A stretch of DNA of 61,092 bases, the filler included, from Dugesia japonica (taxonomy: Eukaryota): the NCBI GenBank assembly GCA_001938525.1. It is 4 parts of 4 records of this genome, joined end to end, with 100 filler letters (N's around TTAATTAATTAA, not from the genome) between each part and the next. Parts side by side here need not be neighbours in the genome. Positions count along the whole stretch, not along the records: positions 1 to 20,707 come from MQRL01557940.1; 3 more parts are not named here. The stretch is one strand, 5' to 3'. Below are positions 13,435 to 51,453 of the stretch, piece after piece; position 1 is the first letter of the stretch; every line of letters starts with the position of its first letter. A program made the position numbers and the translations under genes. The notes below the pieces were generated by a model. The model did no database searches, was not told where the DNA came from, and was given only the letters and a program-made list of their open reading frames with translations.

Positions 13435-13817
13435 TTAGAGCAGATCCAATGCTCCCGGATCTAGCCACTGGTCAGGGGACGTTACTACAAAATTGAATGC
13501 AGCGATATCATCATCTTCGTCCCACTGCATATTATTAGGGTTGCCAATCTGCTTTGACAAGTCCGCAATATATTGTTTTAGGAATTCAATTTTTCGCTGT
13601 AGTAATTGCTTATTCTCAGCTTCCAAGGCCTTTGTCTGGATGGCAAGGTCATTTTGCTTCTTTACTATAGCGTCCAATCTTTTAAGTAGCTTATCTCGTT
13701 GGTCTAAATGTCGTAAGAGGGCCTCGTTGGTTTTTCGTTTCAGGTGCCTCTCTACCAGCAGACGGCGCAGTATACGGTGACATCTACGGAGATTGTTTGG
13801 GAATCGGATACGAGTCA
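13435..13817 (-). CDS. Element ORF D, 127 aa: Arg-rich N-terminus, coiled coil, acidic/aromatic C-terminus; start codon inferred to be completed by splicing (A|TG)
   Basis: Preceded by gctaatttgttttag|TG and followed by AATAAA. Ungapped same-length homologue at 46829-47211. Confidence 0.8.
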
Positions 13818-13950
13818 CTAAAACAAATTAGCATTAATTTAGTAAAATTTTCTCAATGGAAAAGAATATACAATTACTGAAAATAACAAAAGAAAATTCA
13901 AGAGACAGTTCAAGCTATAAAATTTATTAACAAAAGAGGTGGTCTCCCAG

Positions 13951-14309
13951 TTAACTCTTAGGGGTTTGGGTGCTTTTCTCCACCATTAGAGGTTCTAGGG
14001 GCATAGATGTCTTCAACTTCAGAACATCACTTACCAGTTTATTCTCTCGGTCTTGGTAGGACCGGATCATCTCGACCAAAGACTCTACCTGGCCCTTCCA
14101 TACCCTCTCTTGTGCATGGGAGGCCTCAACTTCCTTCCTAAAAGCCACGCATTTTTTTCGATAGCGGCTTACTTTGCTATTGGCGTTAGCTGTATCCGCC
14201 TCCCACTTACGCTTGGCCAGACGATACAGATCCCATGCCATTTCGTGGTCCTCGCTGTCGTCGCGCATCTTTTTCGTAGGAACCGGATTGCGATTTAAAG
14301 ATGAGTGCA
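13951..14309 (-). CDS. Element ORF C, 119 aa coiled-coil protein with C-terminal KSTQT (LC8-type motif); start codon inferred to be completed by splicing
   Basis: Preceded by acttttag|TG, with AATAAA shortly after the stop. Ungapped same-length homologue at 47337-47695. Confidence 0.8.
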
Positions 14310-14608
14310 CTAAAAGTTATATATTAAATTGGAGTAAGATTTAGAATTTTATGCATCCAGAGCAAAATATATATGTATAACTTTTCCTTTTAATTAGTTT
14401 AGTGAAATATCTAAATTTGGTCCGCTTTTATAAAAGAAGAGCTATAAAATTTTAATTACGATTCATGTTACAAGGAAAAATAATGGACAAACATGTGTTC
14501 TAAATTGAAAAATTTATAAAACACACTGACAGTTTAGTTAGTCAAGGAGTGGGGTCTGTGTTTTCTAAAGCGCCACCACTGGCCCGATTCCGCAGATCCC
14601 ATAGGGTA

Positions 14609-14935
14609 TTACCAAGATCTAGTGCCTCGCGGAAGGTGGTTGATTGACACAGGCAATAAGGACGGCCCATCTTGCCATCTGCTAGTAGTTTGGTCACTTA
14701 TTGAGTCATTTGTGATAATCCGGTGTAGTACTTCTTGAGTGCGGTCGGGGCCAGACCATTTATAGTAGGCTTGGCGCTCTGCAGCGGCCCATTCCCTTTC
14801 GTTTTCCTCCTCTTCCCGATTCAAGTTAGAATAATCTGCCAGAATACCCGCGTTCCGGTCATGCGGGTTCTTATACCTCTTAAAAATGGTACGCCCCATG
14901 CAGCAGTCCCATAACAATTCCCATTTATATTCCAT
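14609..14935 (-). CDS. Element ORF B, 108 aa (MEYKW...), unknown function
   Basis: Acceptor ttacag| just upstream (exon starts 14952). Homologous to 47935-48243 (IFxRxxNPHxRxAGIL, ERQxYxxWxGPxRT). Confidence 0.75.
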   Translation of the reverse strand: MEYKWELLWDCCMGRTIFKRYKNPHDRNAGILADYSNLNREEEENEREWAAAERQAYYKWSGPDRTQEVLHRIITNDSISDQTTSRWQDGPSLLPVSINHLPRGTRSW

Positions 14936-15108
14936 AGTAATGGGTTTATTTCCTGTAACAATAACTAATGAAGAGAGATGCATTTATGTAAGTAAATAAT
15001 TTATATTCAACGAAAATAAGTTAAAATACAACACGAATTTTGAGTTAAACAAAATTGCAATACACCATCATTTTAAATGCTCAGTCCTTGTGTATTGAGA
15101 GGAGGTAG

Positions 15109-15291
15109 TTATTCTTCATCGAGATCCACCTTAAGTTCTAGGGGGAACATCTCAACGAAACACTGAAGATCAGTTTCGTCAGGATAATCCACGACCCCGT
15201 GCGAAAGAATATGCATTAATAATTGTCTATTTCGTGCTTTACCCCTTTCAAATTGAATTAGGGTGAGCATCTCGGTTAACTGATCGGCCAT
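15109..15291 (-). CDS. Element ORF A, 60 aa, with PDETDLxCFVEMFP motif
   Basis: Acceptor ttttatag| at 15305. Homologous to 48375-48581. Confidence 0.75.
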   Translation of the reverse strand: MADQLTEMLTLIQFERGKARNRQLLMHILSHGVVDYPDETDLQCFVEMFPLELKVDLDEE

Positions 15292-16731
15292 GATTCCGGT
15301 TTACCTATAAAACAAAATAAAATATTTGCTTCATTTTATCCATGGAACTTGGGAAAGGAAAACGGTGGGCAATCCTCATAAACATGTGCCTGAAATTGAA
15401 TTCTCTAGATTATTTCATTTAGTTATTTTGCAGAACTACGACATCTGTTTAACTGATGCCTTTCTATTTAACAAAAGATATATGTAGGCGGATCGGAATC
15501 TGCGAGAATGCTGCATTATTCCATTTAATTCTTTAAATCAAAATTTGAATTAATTCATATCGGGCCTAGAATAATCAAGGTCATTTAAATAGGGCAAACA
15601 CTGGAAATTTATCATTATTTGTAAAATAAGATGCATATTTTTTATTTCAAAATCGGAATTATTTGTGTTGTTATTAGTGATAACCCAAGGTCGACTAGCT
15701 GAGAGCTAAATTTATATCTCGCTCTATTCTCACTCATGAAGTCAGAATGTTGTAGGTGTGTTCGGTACACAGAACAATCTAGTTATCGTGAACGTGTGTA
15801 TGATCACTGTCAGACTTATGTGGAATGAGATTACACGCTAACTAAGTTGGATGTATTGATTTGATTGAATAATATAACGAGTGTCCCTGTAAGTTATATA
15901 CAATTGTTGCTGCTATGTTAGATTGGTTGGCACTAGGCTGAATGATAATCATAACATCATCGTGAATACTCAGTGCAGATATGTGGTAGAACCTCTACCA
16001 GTTAACATTTGCAACAAATTTTATGATAAGAAAAATGAGAGATATATAATAAACTATTCCTTGACTCGTGACAGTTCTATGCATATCAGACAAAATGAAG
16101 ATAATAGCAGCTGGTAGTTAAATGAAATGATTAAAGTGCTCTCACGCACACCCAGCTCATATACAATAGCAGGCATATTTTGTCTGGTATATTATCTACA
16201 TTTGTTAATTGTATGGCTATGAGAAATTTTCTAATAGTATGCACTGAGAAATTTCAATGAGATTCTAGTGGTTATTCTTTTGGAATTTACTTTATGTCTG
16301 ATATTTCCGTGGATGTGTGTATTTTTACTTCAGAAAGAGTGAGTTATATTATTTAAAATACATTTTATATCTGATTTTTATCTTAATTTCTTATCATACA
16401 ATTTGACATTACTAAAGACAGTCAAGGCATCAAATCAACTGGTCATATAATTCAAATGTGGTTTTCTACTAAATTTAGCAATATACGAAATGATGACTCG
16501 ATTTTACGATGTTCTGCTTTATTTTGATAAAAACATGCTTCATACTTAACAATCATTTTAACTTTAAGCGAGTACAAAAAAAATATGCAGGATTTAATTG
16601 TTGTCATTGACTAATTGTAACTGAAACAAAAAAAATCATTTCAAACTTTACGAATTAAATTTTATTAAGATAACATCATCATAATTATAGTAAATTCTAC
16701 TATTAATCACTCAAGAAAATTAAAATTTTAC

Positions 16732-17055
16732 TTTGTATTAAAGGAGTTCTGCAATCGTAGATATCGAAAATTTGTCACTGTCAATGGTTATGTAACTTCT
16801 TTTCTTTATCTTAGGCTGGAACTAATTTTTTCGGTTTGATAATTCTATAGCGATCTTTTTCAATAACAAGGAATCAATTGAATCTTCTAAATGAATTTGT
16901 GTAAATATGAAAAACCTTTCGTTTTCAGCTAGATACCTGATGCAATAAGACTGGTTATCGTGAGATATATGATTTCGTTTCCTCAAAACTTGAATTTTCT
17001 TACAATATGTCGCTAGTTTAGCAGAGTTCAAAAAATGGTGATTATTTTTTATATA
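16732..17055 (-). other. Putative non-coding leader exon of the element, ending TACAAA|GTAAAA
   Basis: Lies directly downstream of the TATA box. The same TACAAA|GTAA donor is in copy 2 (49751) and an A|GTAAC donor in copy 3 (51230). The start position is inferred. Confidence 0.5.
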
Positions 17056-17078
17056 TCTGTTGTTAAAGTTAGGGGTCC

Positions 17079-17280
17079 TTTTATAAGATTTGTCTTACAC
17101 CCCAACTAGGCCCAGATTTGCTGATATTTTTAGATCAGCTTTTTTTTGCTTTCATTGGTTCTGTTGCTGATCTTCTAAAATTTTCTATGGTTTTNGGTGC
17201 TGCTATTGGCAGCTATTTTTATCAGACCACCTGATTTTTTGGTCTTTGTTTTATTTTTAATTTCAGGTAGCTGATTGGTT
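17079..17280 (-). promoter_or_regulatory. Pol II promoter of the element: 3 CCAAT boxes, GGGGTG box, TATAAAA
   Basis: Minus-strand CCAAT at 17274-78, 17205-09 and 17154-58; GGGGTG at ~17100; TATAAAAGG at 17085-17077. Conserved in copy 2 (TATAAAA 50006-50000). Confidence 0.7.
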
Positions 17281-18844
17281 CGATCTTCGAAACCCTGTAG
17301 TACCTTTCCGGATGATAGTATTTTTTTCTTTTTTGTAATCTCCATTGCACCAGATTGTTCTTCCTTCATTTTTTCTTACCCCGACTCTTTCCGACTTCTT
17401 GAGGCAAAGTTATCCGGATAAAATAGATTTTCCGTTAATTTTGTTTCTTTTTTATTTTAAAATTAATTAATTTTTTTTGTTAATTAATTATTTTTCATTC
17501 TACCTTTTCTTGGTGTTTCTTATTAATTTATTAATTTTTCTTAATTCTTACCCGTAAGTAGCTTTCATTTTACTTGGTTCCTCATTTTCATTTTTGATTT
17601 TACTTCGTTTCCTTCCCATATTGATTTCGAACTTTATTTTTCGGTGATCATTATTATCTGTTAATTTTTTAGTTCATTTTCCTTTAGCGGGTGTTTCACC
17701 CCAACAAAATATAAAAATAATAAAACTATTATATTATATTTTATCTTAAATACTGGGATTTCTATACTTACTATTGTAACTTATTTATTATATATAAGTA
17801 AGAGATACTAGTGCATTGGAACAGTACACATTCAATAAAACCCTATTCACTGACGTAACTTACTACTGAGATAACCTGAAATTGGATGTTTTAATCAATT
17901 ATATAATGGCATCATCAGAAATTTCATTCTCCAATTAATTTTCTTATGTAATTTTAAAAGTATTTCTCAAATTTAAGGCGGTAAAATTTCATGTTTTTAG
18001 ATGGTTAAATTTTTTTCTGTTTTTAGTTGTCAAAAATTTTTCACAGCTGAAGCACCAATATTTTTAAGGCTTTTCTACGATATTATTTTCTAAGCTTTTT
18101 AATTGGCAAAAAAATTTTGAGATTTTTCAATGTAATTCTAGTGTAAAAGTTTTTGTTTAAAAAATATGAAAATTTTTTAAATCAGATTTTTACAGGAATT
18201 TGGGTGAACAACCCAAATGTCATCCTTACATGAAATAATCATGTCTATTAGATAAAGAATTTTCCGATGGTTATAGTTAACAATCGTTATACTTTATCCT
18301 TCTTGAAATAAATGAGGTCTTAAGGTGAAAAATTCAAATTTCAGATTTTAGCGCACAAAGCTCTGTGCCGATAAAGCGTATGGACTCATATTTGGTTTTA
18401 TTTAAATCAGGAGGAAAAATTAACTGTATACAATCGGGAAAAAAGCTTCCTAACGAAGACATTAACCTGTCCTCCGGATTTTGGGACTTCTTCGAAAAAA
18501 TGATGCATGTCAAAATTTATAAAAATTGACACCATTCTATAAAGACATTTACGGTAAGAAAAACATCGGCTAATATCGTCAAACCTTATAGATAAAATTT
18601 TACATAGAAAAACATGTACTTACTTTGAGTCTCATCTGAGGAACTAATGAATTTTAGAAAAAGTAAATCAAATTTTTAACAGCAAACAAACTATTTGGTT
18701 ACAGGGTACAAACTATGAGATGTCTATACACACTCTTGGCTGTAAAAATTACTCTTCGTCTTAGTATAATTAATGAAATCAGTATATTGTTTGCATTCTA
18801 AGTAAAATTATTTTCAAACATTGTTTCAATAACAGTTTTGATTG

Positions 18845-31389: not shown

Positions 31390-32570
31390 TGAGTAGATAG
31401 ATAGTGCAGCACGGGAACAGTACCCCTCCCGCCGCCGACTGTTCTTAACAATTTGACTGTTTTGGTGTTTTTGACAAGTAGGTTTTTAATTGGACGTTAC
31501 GAATAAATGAAAAAATATTCGAATTTTGGTTGGAACGGTCGAATATTTGCTCGGGAAGGTCGAATATCGAAATTTTGTTTTTTTAAATTTTTCGGTCAAA
31601 TTTTATTGTATAGTTTTGAATTTGATATTGATGGTCATAGAATTAAAAACTAAACATCTTTTGTATAGGGTTTGCTATATAAATGTTTTTAGTTTCCAAG
31701 ATAAAGGTAGTGCAGCACGGGAACACTTTGACTTGTTTTTTAAATTTCTCGACCAATATTTGTTATATGGTCATGAAAATGATGGCATTTAATTCAAATT
31801 AAAATTCCAAACATATTTTCTATAGTTTTAGTTCAAAAGTCAGAAAATTCACAGGAGCCATGTCGCACTGAGGATGAAAAATTAATTTTTCGAGAAATAC
31901 TTATGATAATCAAACAAATTTGATATTACTGAACTCAGAATTAAACGCTGAACATTTTCTACATAAAGTTTGCTATATAAATATTTTTAATTTACAAGAT
32001 AAAGGTAGTGCAGCACGGGAACACTTTGACTTGTTTTTTACATTTCTCGATCAAAACGTATAGTATTGATTCACAAATAGTACTATTCGATTAAGAATAA
32101 AATTCTAAACATATTTTGTATAGGGTTTGTTGTGTAAATATGTTTGTTTCAAAAGATAGAAAAATACCGGGTACCATGCTCCACCTTGAATAAAAGAAAT
32201 TATTTACTCTAGAAATATTTATGATAAGCAAACAAATTTAGTATCGTTGAACTCAGAATAAAAAACTGAACATAATTTGTATAGGCTTTACAGTATAAAA
32301 ATCCTTCATTCAAGAAATAATATATAAAATTAATTATAAATTATAATTATATTCAAAATAATAATAAATTTCAAATGATTTACCGATTTAACTCATAATT
32401 AAAATTTGAACATATTTCATATAAGGTTTGCTGTATGAAAATTCTTCGTACAAGAAATAATATATAATTATATAATTAATTATAAATTATAATTATAATT
32501 CAAATAATTATAATAATTTAAAAAATATTTTTAGACCATTAAACTCAGAATAAAAATCTATACATGTATA
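31390..32570. repeat. Dispersed repeat with ~150/300-bp internal tandem subrepeats
   Basis: aagataaaggtagtgcagcacgggaacactttgacttg at ~31698 and ~31996; recurrent gaactcagaat..aaa..ctgaacat. The left end matches the reverse of 2650-2695. Confidence 0.7.
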
Positions 32571-36716: not shown

Positions 36717-38760
36717 TTAATAGCTTCGATTTCGTATACCTTTCACGCTCACAATATGTATCAGAAATTTAATTTCTTGTTTTAGAAATTCACACTTCTC
36801 AGGATTAACTCTTAACCCCGCACCCATTATCCGTTTCAATACTTCCTCTACTACAATGTAATGACTCGCCTCATCCTTTGAAAAAACTAATAATATTGCT
36901 CCCTTCAGATTATTTATCACTTTCTCCTGGAATGTACTAGGCGCTGCTGCTATTCCAAATGGCATCTTGGTAAAACAGTATTGCTTGTGATTTATCGAAA
37001 ATGCGGTTTTCTCTTGAGAATCTTTTTCTAGTTCTGCATTATCCAAGTCAATCGAGCTAAAATATCTATTTCCGTGGAACTGTCCAACTTCTCATCTATA
37101 TTTGGCATAGGAAATGCTTGTCTTTCAGTTATCGTATTTAATCTTCTAAAATTCAAACACAGTCTAATATCCTTTTTCTTTCTTCCAGATACATACTAAC
37201 GGCGCATTCTAAGCTGAATTACATTTCCAAATAATTCCATTCTCCACCAAGTTCCGAATCGTCTCTTCAACATGGTTTTTTAGTTGTAATGGAATTCTAT
37301 ATGGTTTCTTTTTGATTGGCTCTCCATTTGTCACAATTTTATGTTTAGCCAAATGAGTACAACCCACATCCTATTTGGAAGCCATAAAAACATTTACTCT
37401 CCTCTTGCAAATCTCTTGTGCTTTACTTCCATTTACAATACCTGCCGTTTTTTCACTCTTTCCCGTTTATCTACTTCTGCAGCTTCCATACCCAATCTTG
37501 TTTCAATGTTTTCTAACAATTCTCTCCTGTTAATTTCTCTATTTGCATTACTTTCTCTCTTAAGTTGAAACCCAAAAATGTGTTGAAAATTTATTCCTCC
37601 AATAACATTTAAATACACACTTTCCACCAATATAAATTCAACTTCTGCTCTTTTCTCTCTCAGCTGAACTTTCAATCGTATATTCCCTTTAGTATTTAGG
37701 CCACTACCATTAGCACAATGTAACTTTTATCCTGTAGCTTCCACTTTTACTTCAAGCGATTTCTCTAAGCATGACTCGTTAATCATATTAATACAAGCTC
37801 CTGTATCAAAAAGATAGTCCATTACAACTCCACCAATAATTATTGTTAAACTTGGTCTGCCCTGCATTTTATCGAAACTTATTTTTACCTGTTGACCTCC
37901 TGACAATACTTCCACCCACTCCTCAACATTATCCACATGAAACTTCTCTTTCTTTAGAAAACTATATATTTTCTCATAGATTTTCTCTCTATTTTTCCAT
38001 TTCTCTACTCTATGAGGACCTTCCTTGATTGAATTTTCTAATAAATGACTCTAACCACTTCCTCCTTTATTGAAGCTTTCCAATTTGGGTACAGTATCTC
38101 TGATCCATATTCAAGAAGGAAACCTTCTCGTTGATTTCCTTCTTCTTGTGTTTCACTGCATTAAAATAATCATACCAACTTCTCTGTTCCTTTTTTCTAT
38201 TTTTTTCTATCTTCCATTTTGCTTTTTCCTCCATATTATCGGCACCCTGATGCTCTGTGACCGGTCCTACCACATTGAAAACATCTCTCTTTCTTACACT
38301 CTCTTCTCATGTGTCCCATTTCTCCGCATCCAAAACATTTCTTTGTGAGCAATCTCTACTTAGTTGATCTCGTCGTGTGCATGTCCAACATTCTCACTTT
38401 TGGTTCCGTTTTCTGTGTACTCACTACTTTTGCGTAGCTACGTATCATGTTAATTTGCTCCCTTTTCTTCTCTACTCGATCTACTAGAACTAGTGTTTCC
38501 TTAATTTCCCCCGGAGTATGTAACTTCCGCAATACTACCTATTCTTCTACTTTTCAGTTTTCAGACATCCATAACAGCACCTTAGCAACTAACCTCTCCT
38601 TTGTGAAATCTTTATTCTTAAATATTCTGTTCAACATAGATTCTACCGTCTTGATATATACGTCTATTTTGATATTATACCTCTCGGTAATGGAGTTGGT
38701 GCTTACCACTGCCACCATGTGAGACATAGATACCTCAGAATTTCCTAAATTTTCATTTAA
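36717..38760 (-). mobile_element. Decayed Ty3/Gypsy gag-pol (protease, RT)
   Basis: Protease YLFDTGA (37727-37936); RT EKTAFS...MPFGIAAAPSTFQ...LRVNPEKCEF (36717-37046). YxDD region missing; many frameshifts. Confidence 0.85.
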
Positions 38761-40630: not shown

Positions 40631-41070
40631 ATGCTTGTAAGGTTAATAAGTTTTTAAAATATTTGACTAGTTTTTAGCCTAAGTATATTGTGCAAATTAT
40701 TCTGGGAATTTCCAGAGTATTTGGACGAGCAATCGGTAAAGCTGTGAAAGAAGAATATATAGCAAGTCAACAAGCTTCAAAAGGAAGAAATAACAACTCT
40801 AAAACTGCTGAAAGTATTTACACTGATTTATCCTCGAGTATTTCATTGGAAGAAGCAAAATTAATATTAAACATTAAAGATTTATATAACATTGAAGACA
40901 TTAATCAAAAGTATACGTTACTATTTGAAAACAATGATAAATCTAAAGGTGGTAGCCTGTATTTACAATCAAAAGTTAGTAAATTATACATATTAATTAA
41001 ATTATATTAATGTTAGGTTTATCGGGCCAAAGAACGTATTGACCAAGAAATAATGAACATTAACAAATAA
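40631..41070 (+). CDS. PAM16: Mitochondrial import motor subunit PAM16/TIM16 (Magmas); exons 40631-40636, 40678-40974, 41017-41070
   Basis: Spliced product [25 protein letters not shown]...[12 protein letters not shown]...[23 protein letters not shown]; GT-AG introns of 41 and 42 nt. The first micro-exon is inferred. Confidence 0.93.
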
Positions 41071-41129: not shown

Positions 41130-42610
41130 TTATTTCATTGGATCTGCTAATGACCTTCTCCTTTCTTCATTTTGAATCGATTGCGTAATTAATCGTATGG
41201 CGTATTCTACGTTTTGACATAATCCAATAACAGTAACAATTCGATTCGTTGTATTCGGTGCATAGACTCCTTTCTTGGACACTTTAATGTCAGTGGATGT
41301 GTGGCCTTTTAATTCTGAAATCGATGATCCTCTTTTACCCAATATATGGCCTACTATTGTCTCGGGTATCTACAAAAAAAGTTAATTAAAAATTGCATTG
41401 TTAATTATAATTAAATTGAATGATTGAATTAAAAATTGATCTCTAAAGCATGTCCGATGAAGGATGATGAGGACAATTAACTCACCGCTAACTCAATCTG
41501 CATGCTTTTGAGAGGTCCATTTCATTATTTTTTTATTAACATGAAATCACCATCTACTTCCTTTATTTACTACAAAAATTTTCCTTTTCATAACCATAAT
41601 AAATAGAACATTCACCTCAATTGACCTTTCTATTTTATCCATTTTATTAGAAATATTTCCTGAAATATAATTAATGTTCCTGGAAATTTAAGATCTGTTA
41701 GCTTACTGTATGTTTGATCACATTCATTCATAAAAGTATTATTTGGATCAATATTGTGTAAAAGTGATTTTGAAATCGACACAGGTGCATAATTTTCTGG
41801 TGCAACTGAATTTCCCCATACAGATTGTTGATACAAACTTTGAGAATTAGTAGATACGTAATTTAGCATAGAAAGACTATTAAATGCACAATCTTGAGAT
41901 ATTGCATTTACAATTTTTTTAATTGCAATTAACAATTGAGTTAAATTTCCTGTAATAACAACACATCTTTCCGATACTAAACTCCCTTCGACTTTCTGAG
42001 ATAACTGTATATGAACTCCACTCTCTTCTTTTATTTCTTGTACATACTTTCCATTTTTACCGATAATAACACCAGCAGCTGCATTAGAAACCAATAACTT
42101 AATCTAATAAATTTTAACACGCAATCAAATTTTCATATTTTACTTGAGGACGCTTATTTAATTGTGATGAATTATTTATCTGATCATAAGTATTAATTAT
42201 TTTGTCAACGACAAACCCAGTAAAATTAATTACGGATTCAGAAGTTCCAGAAACTAAACATATTCTTTCATTAGTACCTTAACAAAATTATAAAAATTTG
42301 TGACGTCTTAAATATTACCTGGATAAAACTCTCCAACTTTAGATATTTTAGCAACTGCTCCACTATTCTGCTGAGCATTAATGATGTCTTCTCCCTTTTT
42401 CCCCAATATCGCACCTACTGAAACATTAGGAATTAACATCTTAAGAATAACATTGCCTGGGATTATTTAATAATATCTATATTTCATTTTTCATAAGTTA
42501 CTATGATATTTTTTATTTAATACAATATCATCATTTTCTAAGGGGCGTTTCCTACAGCTTTTAATAATAACAGGATCAGTTTGAACAGATGAATCAATTT
42601 TTTCAGCCAT
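41130..42610 (-). CDS. Nova: Nova/pasilla-family triple-KH splicing regulator; exons 42610-42502, 42456-42319, 42277-42144, 42103-?, ..., 41369-41130
   Basis: KH1 LKMLIPNVSVGAILGKKG...FYPGTNERICLVSG; KH2 AAGVIIGKNG...QLSQK...ERCVVITG; KH3 VGHILGKRG...VSKKGVYAPNTTNRIVTVIG. Introns 40-45 nt. Linker exons unresolved. Confidence 0.92.
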
Positions 42611-46596: not shown

Positions 46597-46782
46597 TGTT
46601 GGGTTTCCACCTGAGTTACGTATCAAAAATTGGTTGGCTGGGGAAAAACAGCCTTCAGGGGACCCTTTGAAGAATTTAACCTAAAGTCCCTGGTTTAGGT
46701 ATTCAGTGTAGAGTGGTTGACCTCCTTCTTCATGGGAGGTGCACACTCGTACACCTTTAATTTGGGTTCATGATTTTCCCTT
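46597..46782 (-). ncRNA. Conserved structured RNA element (copy 2)
   Basis: Minus-strand hairpins GTGTA.GAGTG/CACTCTACAC, ACCTCC/GGAGGT, CCTAAA/TTTAGG and GGCTG/CAGCC. Confidence 0.65.
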
Positions 46783-46828
46783 AAATAACTCAAACAAAAC
46801 ATCGTTTAAAGTATCTATTATTAACACA

Positions 46829-47211
46829 TTATAATTCATCCAAAGCGCCAGGGTCGAGCCACTGGGCTGGGTCAGTTAACAAAAAGTTGAAAGAAACTGT
46901 ATCGTCGTTGTCATTCCATTGCATCCAAGTGGGGTTGCCAAGTTGGCGAGAGAGGTCAGAAATATATTGCTTTAAGAAGTCAATTTTCCTTTGCAGGGAT
47001 TGTTTAATTTCCTCCTCGAGGTCATTTGTTTGGATTGCTAGCTCACTTTGCTTTTTAACTATCATATTAAGTTTCTTTATCAGTTTATCTCGTTGAGTGA
47101 GATGCTTTAGGAGTGCCCTGTCTGTTTTCCGTTTAAGGTGCTTTTCTACTAAGAGTCGGCGCATTATTCTGTGACAACGTCGAATACTATTCGGGAAGAT
47201 AATGTGAGGCA
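46829..47211 (-). CDS. Element ORF D copy 2, 127 aa from spliced A|TG
   Basis: tttctttcag|TGCCTCAC acceptor; ungapped alignment to 13435-13817. Confidence 0.8.
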
Positions 47212-47336
47212 CTGAAAGAAAATTATTAATGATATTCATTTTTCATTTATGAGAAAACTAAATGTAAAGACGGAAACAATTCAGACGAAATTAAACACAA
47301 ATAAAAAAATATATTAAATTGCAGTAAAACACGGGT

Positions 47337-47695
47337 TTACGGACGAGAGGTCTGGACCCCTTTATTCATCATCAGCGGTGTTAAGGGCATGGCTTTCCTC
47401 AAGTTTATAACATCATCCACCAGTTTATTCTCTCGGTCTTGATTGGACCGGATAATATCGGTAAGGGACTCTAACTGTGCCTTCCAAACTCGTTCTTGTT
47501 GATGTGACGCCTCGGCTTCCGCTTTGAAGGCCANGCATTCCCTTTTGTAATGCTGAACTTTGGCAGCTGCGTTTGCTACATCCACCTCCCAGCGCCGTTT
47601 AGCCAACTTATATAGGTCCCAAGTGATCTCGGTGTCGTCACTAGAAGCCCTTACTTTCTTGGTCGGGGCCGCAACACGATTCAGTGAGGAGTGCA
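47337..47695 (-). CDS. Element ORF C copy 2, 119 aa from spliced A|TG, C-terminal KGVQT
   Basis: tttcttctag|TGCACTCC acceptor; ungapped alignment to 13951-14309. Confidence 0.8.
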
Positions 47696-47934
47696 CTAGA
47701 AGAAACGCAATTTATCAAACATGATATAAAGATTTGGTGAATAAAATCAATCACTTACATCAATTGCTACTCGGTGGACATTTTATCCATCGTTAAGGTT
47801 AATTTTAATAAAAGATAAATTTACATGACAAAAAGATTTGGTTAAAAATCCGGAACAAATATATATTTTATTGTAAGACACCAAAAAAAAAATCACTAAT
47901 GAGTAGGGGCTGAATCAGCCACGGGTGCTGTATT

Positions 47935-48243
47935 CTAGGAATCTTCGCTACTCGAGGGTTCTCTTACACCCCATAATAAATTGTTAATATAGGCCTGCAC
48001 CGCTGGAGGTGGGGCGGAAGGTTGATACTGGAATGACGTGGCAAGGGTTCGGCCAGGCCCCGTCCAGCTCTGATAACTTTGTCGCTCACCAAAGTCTTGG
48101 ATCCTGGCGACCATGGCCTCTACCGGAGGTAAGTTAGACCGATTGGATAAAATACCGGCATCCCGACGATGAGGGTTTCTATGTCGTCGGAAAATGATGC
48201 GACGAGTCCTGCGGTCAATCATTCTTTCCCATATTGATTCCAT
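47935..48243 (-). CDS. Element ORF B copy 2, 102 aa
   Basis: tgtttcag|AATG acceptor; AATAAA downstream (~47870); homologous to 14609-14935. Confidence 0.75.
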   Translation of the reverse strand: MESIWERMIDRRTRRIIFRRHRNPHRRDAGILSNRSNLPPVEAMVARIQDFGERQSYQSWTGPGRTLATSFQYQPSAPPPAVQAYINNLLWGVREPSSSEDS

Positions 48244-48374
48244 TCTGAAACATAAAATTTAATTTATCATAACAGACCAGTACATTAATTAGTAAACTGA
48301 ACAGACAAAAATAAGAAGTAAAGATTTAAATTGGACATTTAATCAGGCATAACAAATTTCCTATTTCAATGAAA

Positions 48375-48581
48375 TTAGTTGTACTCTCGCAGAGACCCTG
48401 CTTCTTCATCTATATCTATTTTCGCAGTCGATGGAAACATCTCGACGAAGCAAATCAAATCGGTTTCGTCAGGATGCCTAATTAGACTGGGAGCTATGAG
48501 ATGCCCGATTAATTGCCTTTTGCGTGATCGTTCGCGCTCTCGTTGAATGAATTGAAGAGTCAATAGGAGTATATTCGACAT
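48375..48581 (-). CDS. Element ORF A copy 2, 68 aa (MSNIL...)
   Basis: gtttcag|ATACCCCATG acceptor at 48589; shares PDETDLxCFVEMFP and KxDxDEE with copy 1. Confidence 0.75.
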   Translation of the reverse strand: MSNILLLTLQFIQRERERSRKRQLIGHLIAPSLIRHPDETDLICFVEMFPSTAKIDIDEEAGSLREYN

Positions 48582-50411
48582 GGGGTATCTGAAACTGATG
48601 CACAATTATTATACCATTTGCAAAAAAAATTAGTTATTCCACAGGTTTTTATTGTTTACCTGTAAAAGCAACACTCGAAATTTTACTATAATTGCGTATG
48701 ACAAGAACTAATTCACTTCTGAGAGTGCTCGAGAACCTGAACATAATAGTCAAGGTAAGTAGTAGGGTTAGTTGCAAATAGCACTATTTCCTTTTCCTTA
48801 TAAATTGGGTAAGATTTGCGTCCACAGGAATCGGTTAATAATGCTAGTCAGTAGTTTCAGTGGTGACGATATGAATTTTAATATCCTTAATAGTGAATGT
48901 TTAACCATCAATTATTACACTAGTAATACACCCATTTATTATTATTTTAATAATTGTACGGAGGTTATGATATCCATATATGATTATATATCCTTATTAT
49001 AATGTTATTTTAATATTATTAACTGTTGTTAGTTATAATTAGAATCTTATTTATTCTTATCCCCCTGATTTTAGTTGTTAAAAACCATTATAAATATTCG
49101 GTCATATAATGTATTTTTAATTATGATTGAATTTGGGCGTTACCGGTAACTTAGCACCACGAAGGTCACAGCAGGTTTGCAGTAATAGCCCCCAATACAC
49201 GCTGGCGTGTAGAAAAGAAAATAATATCTGTAGGTGTGCAGACTAATTTTATTTCATATCGACTAATTTAACATCATCACTATAGAAGTAATTTTCTTGT
49301 TACCTCATTTACATACTACGGCAACTTAATTCACTATCGATGTTAGTTGGTCATTGTATACACGGAAAATTGCATAACTAACATGCTGGTATTCCGTTGA
49401 TATTATCTTTAACAAATCGACTCAATTTTGTGCAGAGCAAGCAAGTGAGCGTACGATTAATCAGTTGACTTTATCCACCAAAATATTTTTATTGTTAACA
49501 ATAGTAATATAAAAATAATNNNNNNNNNNNNNNNNNNNNNNNNNNNNNNNNNNNNNNNNNNNNNNNNNNNNNNNNNNNNNNNNNNNNNNNNNNNNNNNNN
49601 NNNNNNNNNNNNNNNNNNNNNNNNNNNNNNNNNNNNNNNNNNNNNNNNNNNNNNNNNNNNNNNNNNNNNNNNNNNNNNNNNNNNNNNNNNNNNNNNNTTC
49701 TGCTGTTACGAAAAATTGAAGCTAATTTATGATCAAAATAATAGAATTACTTTGTAGCTTGGCAGCAAATTGATCTATGCGAGATAACTAATCACGTCTT
49801 TTTCCAATAAATTATAATGGTGGTAGAATAACTGTTCTCGGATAATCGTCGACTTCGCAGTTTTTATTGTAGTTAAATTTTCAGTTGTTTGTGGTTTGCA
49901 GTTGATTTTTTGTAGTTGTAGTTGAAGTTAAAGTTGTAGTTGTAATTGTAGTTGTAGTTGTTTTTAAATTTGTGTGTTTTCTGCTAATTCCATGATTCCT
50001 TTTATACAATTTTTCTTAGCACCCCAACTTTTTTCATAATCGCTGGTTATTTTTAATTTGATTTTACTGATTTTGATTGGTTCTACTGCCAATCTTCTGA
50101 AATTTTTTTCAGAGTTTTAGAGTTCCAATTGGCGGCTATTTTTAAATCATCAGGTGAGACTTAGTGCTTTGTTTTATTTTTAAATTTCAGAATGCTATTG
50201 GACCAATCTTAGAATCTTCGTGGGGGTCCTCTAGATGGTGGTACCAGTTTCTTGTGTCAAAATTCCGATGACCTGATCCAAATCCTTCCCGAATTTTCTT
50301 CTGCCCAGCTCCTGTGTCTTTTGGTTGTAAAGTTATTCGTATAAAACGAATTTTTTGCTAATTTTGGTTTATTTTATTTCTGAATTAATTAATATTTTTT
50401 CTTTTTACAAT

Positions 50412-51453
50412 TGTTGGGGTGAAACACTCAGCGGAATGAGAAATAAAATCAAAGGGGGTCATAAATCATTCATTATCAAAACAAAAATAATATTATGGGA
50501 AGGAAAATGGAAAATCAAACAAGAAGAATCAGGATCATATTAATAAACAAAAATGGAAAGATTCAGACGATTAAACTAAGTTGGATTAATTATAATAATC
50601 GAAGGATTTAATAAAATTAAGAAAGAAAACGATTAACAGAAAAAGAAATAATTACAAAAAAATGTCAATTAATTTAAACGAAAAAAATTAATTAAATTTG
50701 GGCAGAAATTCTAATTATGCTGGTAACTTCGCTCCTGGTAAACCTATGAGGGAGGCTCAAGAAAATCCTTGCAGAGTTTCGGCTAACGCATCGGAATTTG
50801 GGTATACCAAAGCTCTAACATCATTCGGAGAACTTCTGCAGAGGTTTGAAGCTTGAGCCAATGACGAACCTGAAATTATAATTAAAACAAAGACACAATT
50901 NNNNNNNNNNNNNNNNNNNNNNNNNNNNNNNNNNNNNNNNNNNNNNNNNNNNNNNNNNNNNNNNNNNNNNNNNNNNNNNNNNNNNNNNNNNNNNNNNNNN
51001 NNNNNNNNNNNNNNNNNNNNNNNNNNNNNNNNNNNNNNNNNNNNNNNNNNNNTAAAAGAACCCCTGAATTTAGCAGAAAATCATCAACAAAATTTTTGAT
51101 ACTTAGAGTGTGAATACTTTCAGCACATTTATCGCAGAATTATTATCGAGAAAAGAAACCAAAACCACGTATCACTCTTAATTAATTATCGTCTATCCCG
51201 AGGAATTCAATTTCACCAGAGCACCAGCGAGTAACTTACGATTAATTTTGTTTCAATTAATTCTGTTTCGAAAGAAGAAGAAATCACCACCGAAGAACTC
51301 TGTTTTTTGCCCAAATAATACATCTAGCGATAGCCAGACCCGATGCGAAAACCGTAACAGGAATTCACCAGTTAATATGAAAAAAGTAAATTGTTATTTT
51401 GATTATGTTAAAAGTTGTATTAAGAAGAAATTTTGAATATTATTTAAATAAAT
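50412..51453 (+). mobile_element. Novel element copy 3 (promoter end only), inverted and apparently nested in copy 2
   Basis: Begins TGTTGGGGTGAAACAC, identical to the reverse of the copy 1 right end. Shares acctgaaatta.aa.taaaacaaagac; (TA)TAAAAGAACCCCT follows the gap at 51053. Runs off the scaffold end. Confidence 0.75.

Follow-up and report, generated by a model that had tools for sequence, protein, structure and literature searches.

The window analyzed here is a stretch of 61,092 nt from the flatworm Dugesia japonica (assembly GCA_001938525.1), made of four parts of four records joined end to end, and its GC content is about 27%. It holds three copies of a dispersed, multi-copy repeat family, positioned as follows.

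13186..17706, minus strand: copy 1, complete mobile unit of 4,521 bp, bounded by TGTTGGGGT...ACCCCAACA
17707..17710, minus strand: target-site duplication ATTT, 5′ side of copy 1
13182..13185, minus strand: target-site duplication ATTT, 3′ side of copy 1
13186..13370, minus strand: conserved non-coding 3′ end of copy 1
46597..50403, minus strand: copy 2, a diverged subfamily; its first ~225 nt are absent from the window, and it has one N gap
50412..51454, plus strand: copy 3, partial, 5′ part only; interrupted by N gaps, with no ORFs in the window

Copy 1 runs, on the minus strand, from a 621-bp upstream region through a TATA box (TATAAAAGG), an ATG-free leader, a donor and a 1.4-kb spacer to four small ORFs, A, B, C and D, and the 3′ end, and copy 2 keeps this gene order. 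AT-rich spacers of 133-299 nt separate the four ORFs of copy 1, and GC content is 26-31% in spacers versus 42-49% in ORFs. Copies 2 and 3 meet head-to-head at 50403-50412. The repeat family is clearly abundant in the genome: 4756 contigs of run X7 match copy 1, and summed depth over ORF D in that run was 2,300-3,400, compared with 5-9 for near-identical single pieces, a sum that is not to be taken as copy number. Elsewhere in the window lie host exons on opposite strands, one of Pam16 (40678-41010, plus strand), whose closest named relatives are from cestodes and trematodes, and one of a KH-domain gene (41630-42103, minus strand). An intron-free frame of 379 codons starting MGNSLT (6905-8044, plus strand) had no Pfam match above cut-off, and other repeats comprise a tandem-like block at 31619-32565 and the dispersed pairs 796-1299/18226-18697 and 1312-1486/10743-10917.

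The termini of copy 1, TGTTGGGGT...ACCCCAACA, form a perfect inverted repeat of 9 bp with TG...CA ends, and the 4-bp target duplication is readable for this copy only; copies 2 and 3 each lack one end. Copy 1 thus has the TG...CA ends with an inverted repeat, the duplication of 4-6 bp, the internal promoter and the multi-copy family by which a solo LTR is recognized, and since these ends, the short inverted repeat, the 4-bp duplication and the internal promoter fit a Gypsy-type solo LTR, the 4.5-kb unit is likely a solo LTR from a large retrotransposon of the Gypsy type in this flatworm. Ginger-like TIR DNA transposons have long terminal inverted repeats of 40-270 bp plus a transposase gene. 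That class was ruled out, as the inverted repeat measures just 9 bp and ORFs A-D have no transposase match. No internal gag-pol region tied to the unit was found in the window; decayed pol fragments of Gypsy type (RT, RNase H, protease) lie on the minus strand at 36717-38050 and 54691-56996. An Rfam search returned no match for the conserved 3′ end of the unit, and the tRNA search found none. The LTRs of Burro elements are multi-kb. Burro / GYPSM1 have been described as giant Gypsy-like LTR retrotransposons of planarians, very abundant and carrying accessory ORFs (PMC6431247), and the unit resembles them in its flatworm host, its abundance, its TG...CA structure of several kb and its accessory ORFs, but that description, in the section on these elements, mentions neither genes nor splicing within the LTR. 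Compared by description only, Burro is the likely family of the unit.

Upstream of the ORFs, the following promoter, leader and donor features were annotated, with the leader start set from the position of the TATA box.

17077..17085, minus strand: TATA box TATAAAAGG of copy 1, 621 bp from the unit 5′ end
16732..17055, minus strand: predicted non-coding leader exon of copy 1, ~324 nt, ending TACAAA
16726..16731, minus strand: predicted donor GTAAAA of copy 1
49751..49975, minus strand: predicted leader of copy 2, ~225 nt, ending TACAAA, then GTAATT

The TATA box is conserved between copy 1 (17085) and copy 2 (50006), and the version in copy 3 is cut by N at 51053. A second TATA-like word around 17056 was rejected as a promoter because it is not conserved. 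Neither leader contains an ATG, a state reached in 6 of 2000 shuffles for copy 1 and in 127 of 2000 for copy 2. The candidate donor TACAAA/GTAA (slashes mark predicted splice boundaries) has its last A at 16732 in copy 1 and at 49751 in copy 2, and the 10-mer TACAAAGTAA is the longest word common to the two leader zones, which otherwise align poorly. A donor-like 10-mer was shared in 8 of 2000 shuffles, compared with 657 of 2000 for a shared 10-mer of any kind. A third TACAAAGTAA lies at 51762-51771 (plus strand), past the N gaps after copy 3, in no clear context, and may be there by chance. Copy 3 provides a third A-ending candidate donor, in which an ATG-free leader has its last A at 51230 and GTAACT follows from 51231. 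The GCGA/GTAAC donor given for this copy in the first-pass annotation is present, with the correction that copy 3 is partial and lies on the plus strand. A rival donor-like word, GTAAGA at 17003, occurs in copy 1 only, upstream of 16732, and an exon ending there would end in T.

The four ORFs were placed as follows.

15109..15291, minus strand: ORF A, copy 1, 60 aa, own ATG
48375..48581, minus strand: ORF A, copy 2, 68 aa
14609..14935, minus strand: ORF B, copy 1, 108 aa, own ATG
47935..48243, minus strand: ORF B, copy 2, 102 aa, ATG one base after tttcag
13951..14309, minus strand: ORF C, copy 1, 119 codons counting a predicted splice-built ATG, starting ttttag/TGCAC
13435..13817, minus strand: ORF D, copy 1, 127 codons counting a predicted splice-built ATG, starting ttttag/TGACT
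47337..47695, minus strand: ORF C, copy 2, starting ttctag/TGCAC
46829..47211, minus strand: ORF D, copy 2, starting tttcag/TGCCT

All seven putative splice sites named in the first-pass annotation, the four acceptors and the donors at 16732, 49751 and 51230, were found in place. As it had also claimed, ORFs C and D of both copies (4 of 4 cases) lack a conserved start ATG and begin at a pyrimidine-tract AG/TG, and their lengths are equal in both copies (119 codons for C and 127 for D), with an alignment that is ungapped from TG onward at 61% identity for ORF C and 69% for ORF D. Around the AG of the C and D acceptors, 25-26 of 60 positions are identical before it and 35-39 of 60 after it. The first ATG common to both copies is codon 103 of ORF C and codon 97 of ORF D, and conservation begins at codon 1-2. 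In copy 2, ORF D has an in-frame ATG at 47239, nine codons upstream in the presumed intron, which is absent from copy 1. An AATAAA stands 15 nt after the ORF D stop in copy 1.

A comparison of copies 1 and 2 gave pS of 0.83, 0.69 and 0.75 for ORFs D, C and B against dN of 0.22, 0.31 and 0.48, respectively, a pattern absent in shifted frames; the first 66 aa of ORF B are 47% identical between these copies. The four ORFs are under purifying selection, and their synonymous sites are saturated. AlphaFold2 predicted one long helix for each of ORFs C (residues 18-102) and D (residues 8-91), the latter with an acidic tail. C and D are predicted to be long coiled coils and most likely serve the element as accessory, partner-binding proteins, not as enzymes. 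Homolog searches were negative throughout: none was found for ORFs C and D in 5.8 billion proteins, and a profile of ORF D against 1.84 billion proteins yielded no accepted homolog, its lone match, a repeat-rich protein of 2917 aa, being rejected as chance. Exact matching in a collection of 15 billion proteins gave 0 of 12 for these ORFs, viral and metagenome contigs contained no homolog, and the Atlas had none for ORF D. Pfam gave nothing for ORFs A-D except coiled-coil matches below cut-off, and a viral fold search had 0 matches at E 0.001, with no Env match for C and D.

The shared TG opening of ORFs C and D is uncommon in the window. TG comes next after 12 of 288 acceptor-like sites, and among 59 stop-to-stop frames of at least 80 codons only 3 have a YYYYAG/TG start before any ATG within 15 codons, all 3 being ORF C or D; the ATG at 47239 excludes ORF D of copy 2 from this count. 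Four-fold sites agree between the copies at 16 of 64 positions, which is chance level, with G in both at 3 of 64, and 59 of 822 codons end in TG. With two copies compared, the post hoc chance that two unrelated ORFs both open on TG and both keep the G at saturated sites is thus about 0.07 x 0.07 x 0.27 x 0.27 = 4e-4. A fixed third-position G is needed by Met, not by Leu or Val. On these comparative grounds we consider it probable that the ATG of ORFs C and D is built by splicing, from the last A of the leader and the TG of the acceptor exon. The first-pass annotation had placed an A at -3 of this start, which is wrong, as splicing would yield TACAA-ATG with C at -3 in copies 1 and 2 and G in copy 3. 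The start context of such a splice-built ATG would be weak (C at -3), which counts against it. Another ttctcag/TG, in intron 1 of copy 1 at 16243 (minus strand), was read by eye to open a frame of ~37 codons and had no counterpart seen in copy 2.

The same acceptors would look real whatever exon joins them, and C and D might instead be alternative terminal exons that a phase-1 splice attaches to a coding exon further upstream; XTG would then encode an internal residue (Leu, Val or Met). ORF A of copy 1 does have a phase-1 donor, GGG/GTAAAG at 15242, and the N gap takes part of intron 1 in copy 2. We nevertheless regard such a join as unlikely: ORFs A and B have no phase-1 donor common to both copies, the leaders have no ATG, and an internal codon would not be expected to keep a third-position G where sites are saturated (3 of 64). 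A splice-built start could also take its A from some other donor or exon of the full-length element rather than from TACAAA/GT, as the differing donor context in copy 3 (GCGA/GT), the poor alignment of the leaders, and joints in runs X2 and X3 that start upstream of the expected start site would allow. This is unlikely in our judgment, with TACAAA/GTAA conserved between saturated copies (the 8 of 2000 shuffles above) and forming, in copy 2, the first GTAA after the TATA box.

Translation from unspliced RNA, with C and D starting at a genomic GTG or at internal ATGs, has in its favor that the in-frame genomic codon at the start is GTG in 4 of 4 cases, that contigs run across the acceptors, and that small ORFs of the MDG1 group are reported to be made from unspliced RNA (PMC11952523). 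It is nonetheless quite improbable, given that a T-rich tract with YAG precedes the GTG, that the ATGs of the upstream ORFs A and B would catch scanning ribosomes, and that conservation extends from codon 1-2, far ahead of the first shared ATG in either ORF. SL trans-splicing, offered by the first-pass annotation as the alternative to a cis leader, found no support. Free-living flatworms do trans-splice, but in the same source the flatworm leader is shown to end in AUG, for parasitic flatworms (PMC12582326). Such a terminal AUG would be out of frame with these exons and yield only 1, 5, 16 and 5 residues, which makes this alternative unlikely; with a cis donor present as well, we rate it as very improbable. 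The planarian spliced leader, too, ends in AUG. For a splice-built start from a cis leader, the kept TG, the A-ending donor and the ATG-free leaders lend comparative support to the cis-splicing of the first-pass annotation, the junction itself still being a predicted one.

Neither the solo-LTR-like setting of the genes nor the next feature figures in the first-pass annotation. Ahead of ORF A, both copies carry a site that combines an acceptor with a donor word.

15299..15306, minus strand: acceptor AG/GTAAAC, ratchet-like, copy 1, 13 nt before the ORF A ATG
48654..48661, minus strand: acceptor AG/GTAAAC, copy 2, 78 nt before the ORF A ATG

The sequence AGGTAAAC occurs twice in all over the two strands of the window, at 15306 and 48661, each time behind a pyrimidine tract and ahead of ORF A, and AG/GTAA is found at 2 of 288 acceptor-like sites, both of them before ORF A. 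In both copies AG/GTAAAC presents a YAG/GTRAG-like word at an acceptor, as in recursive splice sites. For such ratchet points the pattern (y)nncag/gtaagt has been described in very long introns (PMC2773006). The likeness to that pattern is an acceptor directly followed by a donor word, here tag/GTAAAC and cag/GTAAAC; the spans here, by contrast, are 1.1-2.9 kb, and AG/GTAAAC would probably also serve ORF A as its acceptor. A ratchet function would be our reading of two copies, noticed post hoc.

RNA evidence was sought in several runs. No RNA dataset is listed as containing copy 1, and no reads or contigs were found to join 16732 to 14309 or 13817 in runs that barely cover the element or are guessed to be RNA. 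In the raw RNA runs X9, X12 and X8, of which 25%, 25% and 6% were examined, 65, 9 and 3 reads align, all as partial fits and none 99% alike; they gave no joints, and these runs barely touch the element. Most of these reads come from a diverged relative and lie at the far 3′ end (13228-13266), with 53, 7 and 3 reads at 13265, and since they are oligo-dT or cDNA reads from three studies, some subfamily is transcribed. In a comparison including X9, X12, X8 and X7, 0 of 9 joints fell at predicted places, as did 0 of 15 in the four contig runs X1-X4, which are only guessed to be RNA. Among the 30 contigs listed, with 980 further pieces unlisted, unspliced sequence runs across the D acceptor in 4 and across the C acceptor in 1, with at least 31 letters on each side; such contigs may represent DNA, pre-mRNA or a C message that reads on into D. 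In favor of the model, one X2 contig links position 17061, on the promoter side, to position 13792 in ORF D and lacks any ORF C piece in the middle. It also takes in DNA from before the expected start and is listed without its middle letters, so that a shorter genomic variant may be its source. In X1-X4 the contig depth falls ahead of the C acceptor. This was rejected as a sign of splicing, because depth in the DNA-like run X7, in which all 30 bins are covered, falls about 12-fold there too.

Taken as a mechanism, one promoter would make a leader with no ATG, and cis-splicing would attach this leader to one of the four small genes. ORFs A and B would supply their own ATG, and for ORFs C and D the last A of the leader would complete the start codon (A/TG). 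Since a scanning ribosome takes the first ATG, each splice choice would give one protein, and neither C nor D would be translated if the RNA stayed unspliced or if an acceptor further upstream were used. Splicing to AG/GTAAAC before ORF A would rebuild a donor, TACAAA/GTAAAC, with the leader A still last, so that the leader could pass stepwise to C or D. We infer as likely the identity of the unit as an LTR, transcription from the TATA box, the use of the donor and the joins.

A start codon completed by splicing is known from the springer subclade of Drosophila errantiviruses, in which the env start is described as AU/G (bioRxiv 10.1101/2023.08.03.551782). Both cases concern a Gypsy-type element whose start codon is completed from a non-coding upstream piece. 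In springer the split is AU/G, one gene (env) is served, the site is in the internal region and the junction was mapped by experiment, whereas here the split is A/UG, two acceptors share one leader, the setting is a terminal-repeat-like unit and the junction is predicted. The products here, predicted helices of 119-127 aa, are unrelated to Env, which sets them outside the springer type; the proposed mechanism resembles that of the springer env start without belonging to the same system. The MDG1-group sORF1 and sORF2 of Drosophila are likewise small accessory ORFs; they lie close to the 5′ end, evolve under selection and have alternative polyadenylation between them, yet they have their own start codons, unspliced transcripts and a position upstream of gag, outside the LTR (PMC11952523). 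No match at family level between them and ORFs A-D turned up. We found no report of such a cassette in the literature; supplements of primary papers may describe these repeats.

We tentatively propose, as a possibility that we hold to be less than probable, that the LTR of a giant element is a four-gene unit run by a splicing ratchet, and that solo repeats, in their thousands, could go on producing selected regulatory coiled-coil proteins even where the remainder of the element is absent. ORFs A-D are four small genes of no known family. Splice-built starts of this kind would give an animal genome a compact means, much as in viruses, of expressing several genes from a single promoter, the choice of splice deciding what is translated. 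As gene callers need an ATG, genes with splice-built starts are missed, and a regeneration model group would have hidden coding capacity in an abundant class of repeats, should its solo repeats still be producing proteins.
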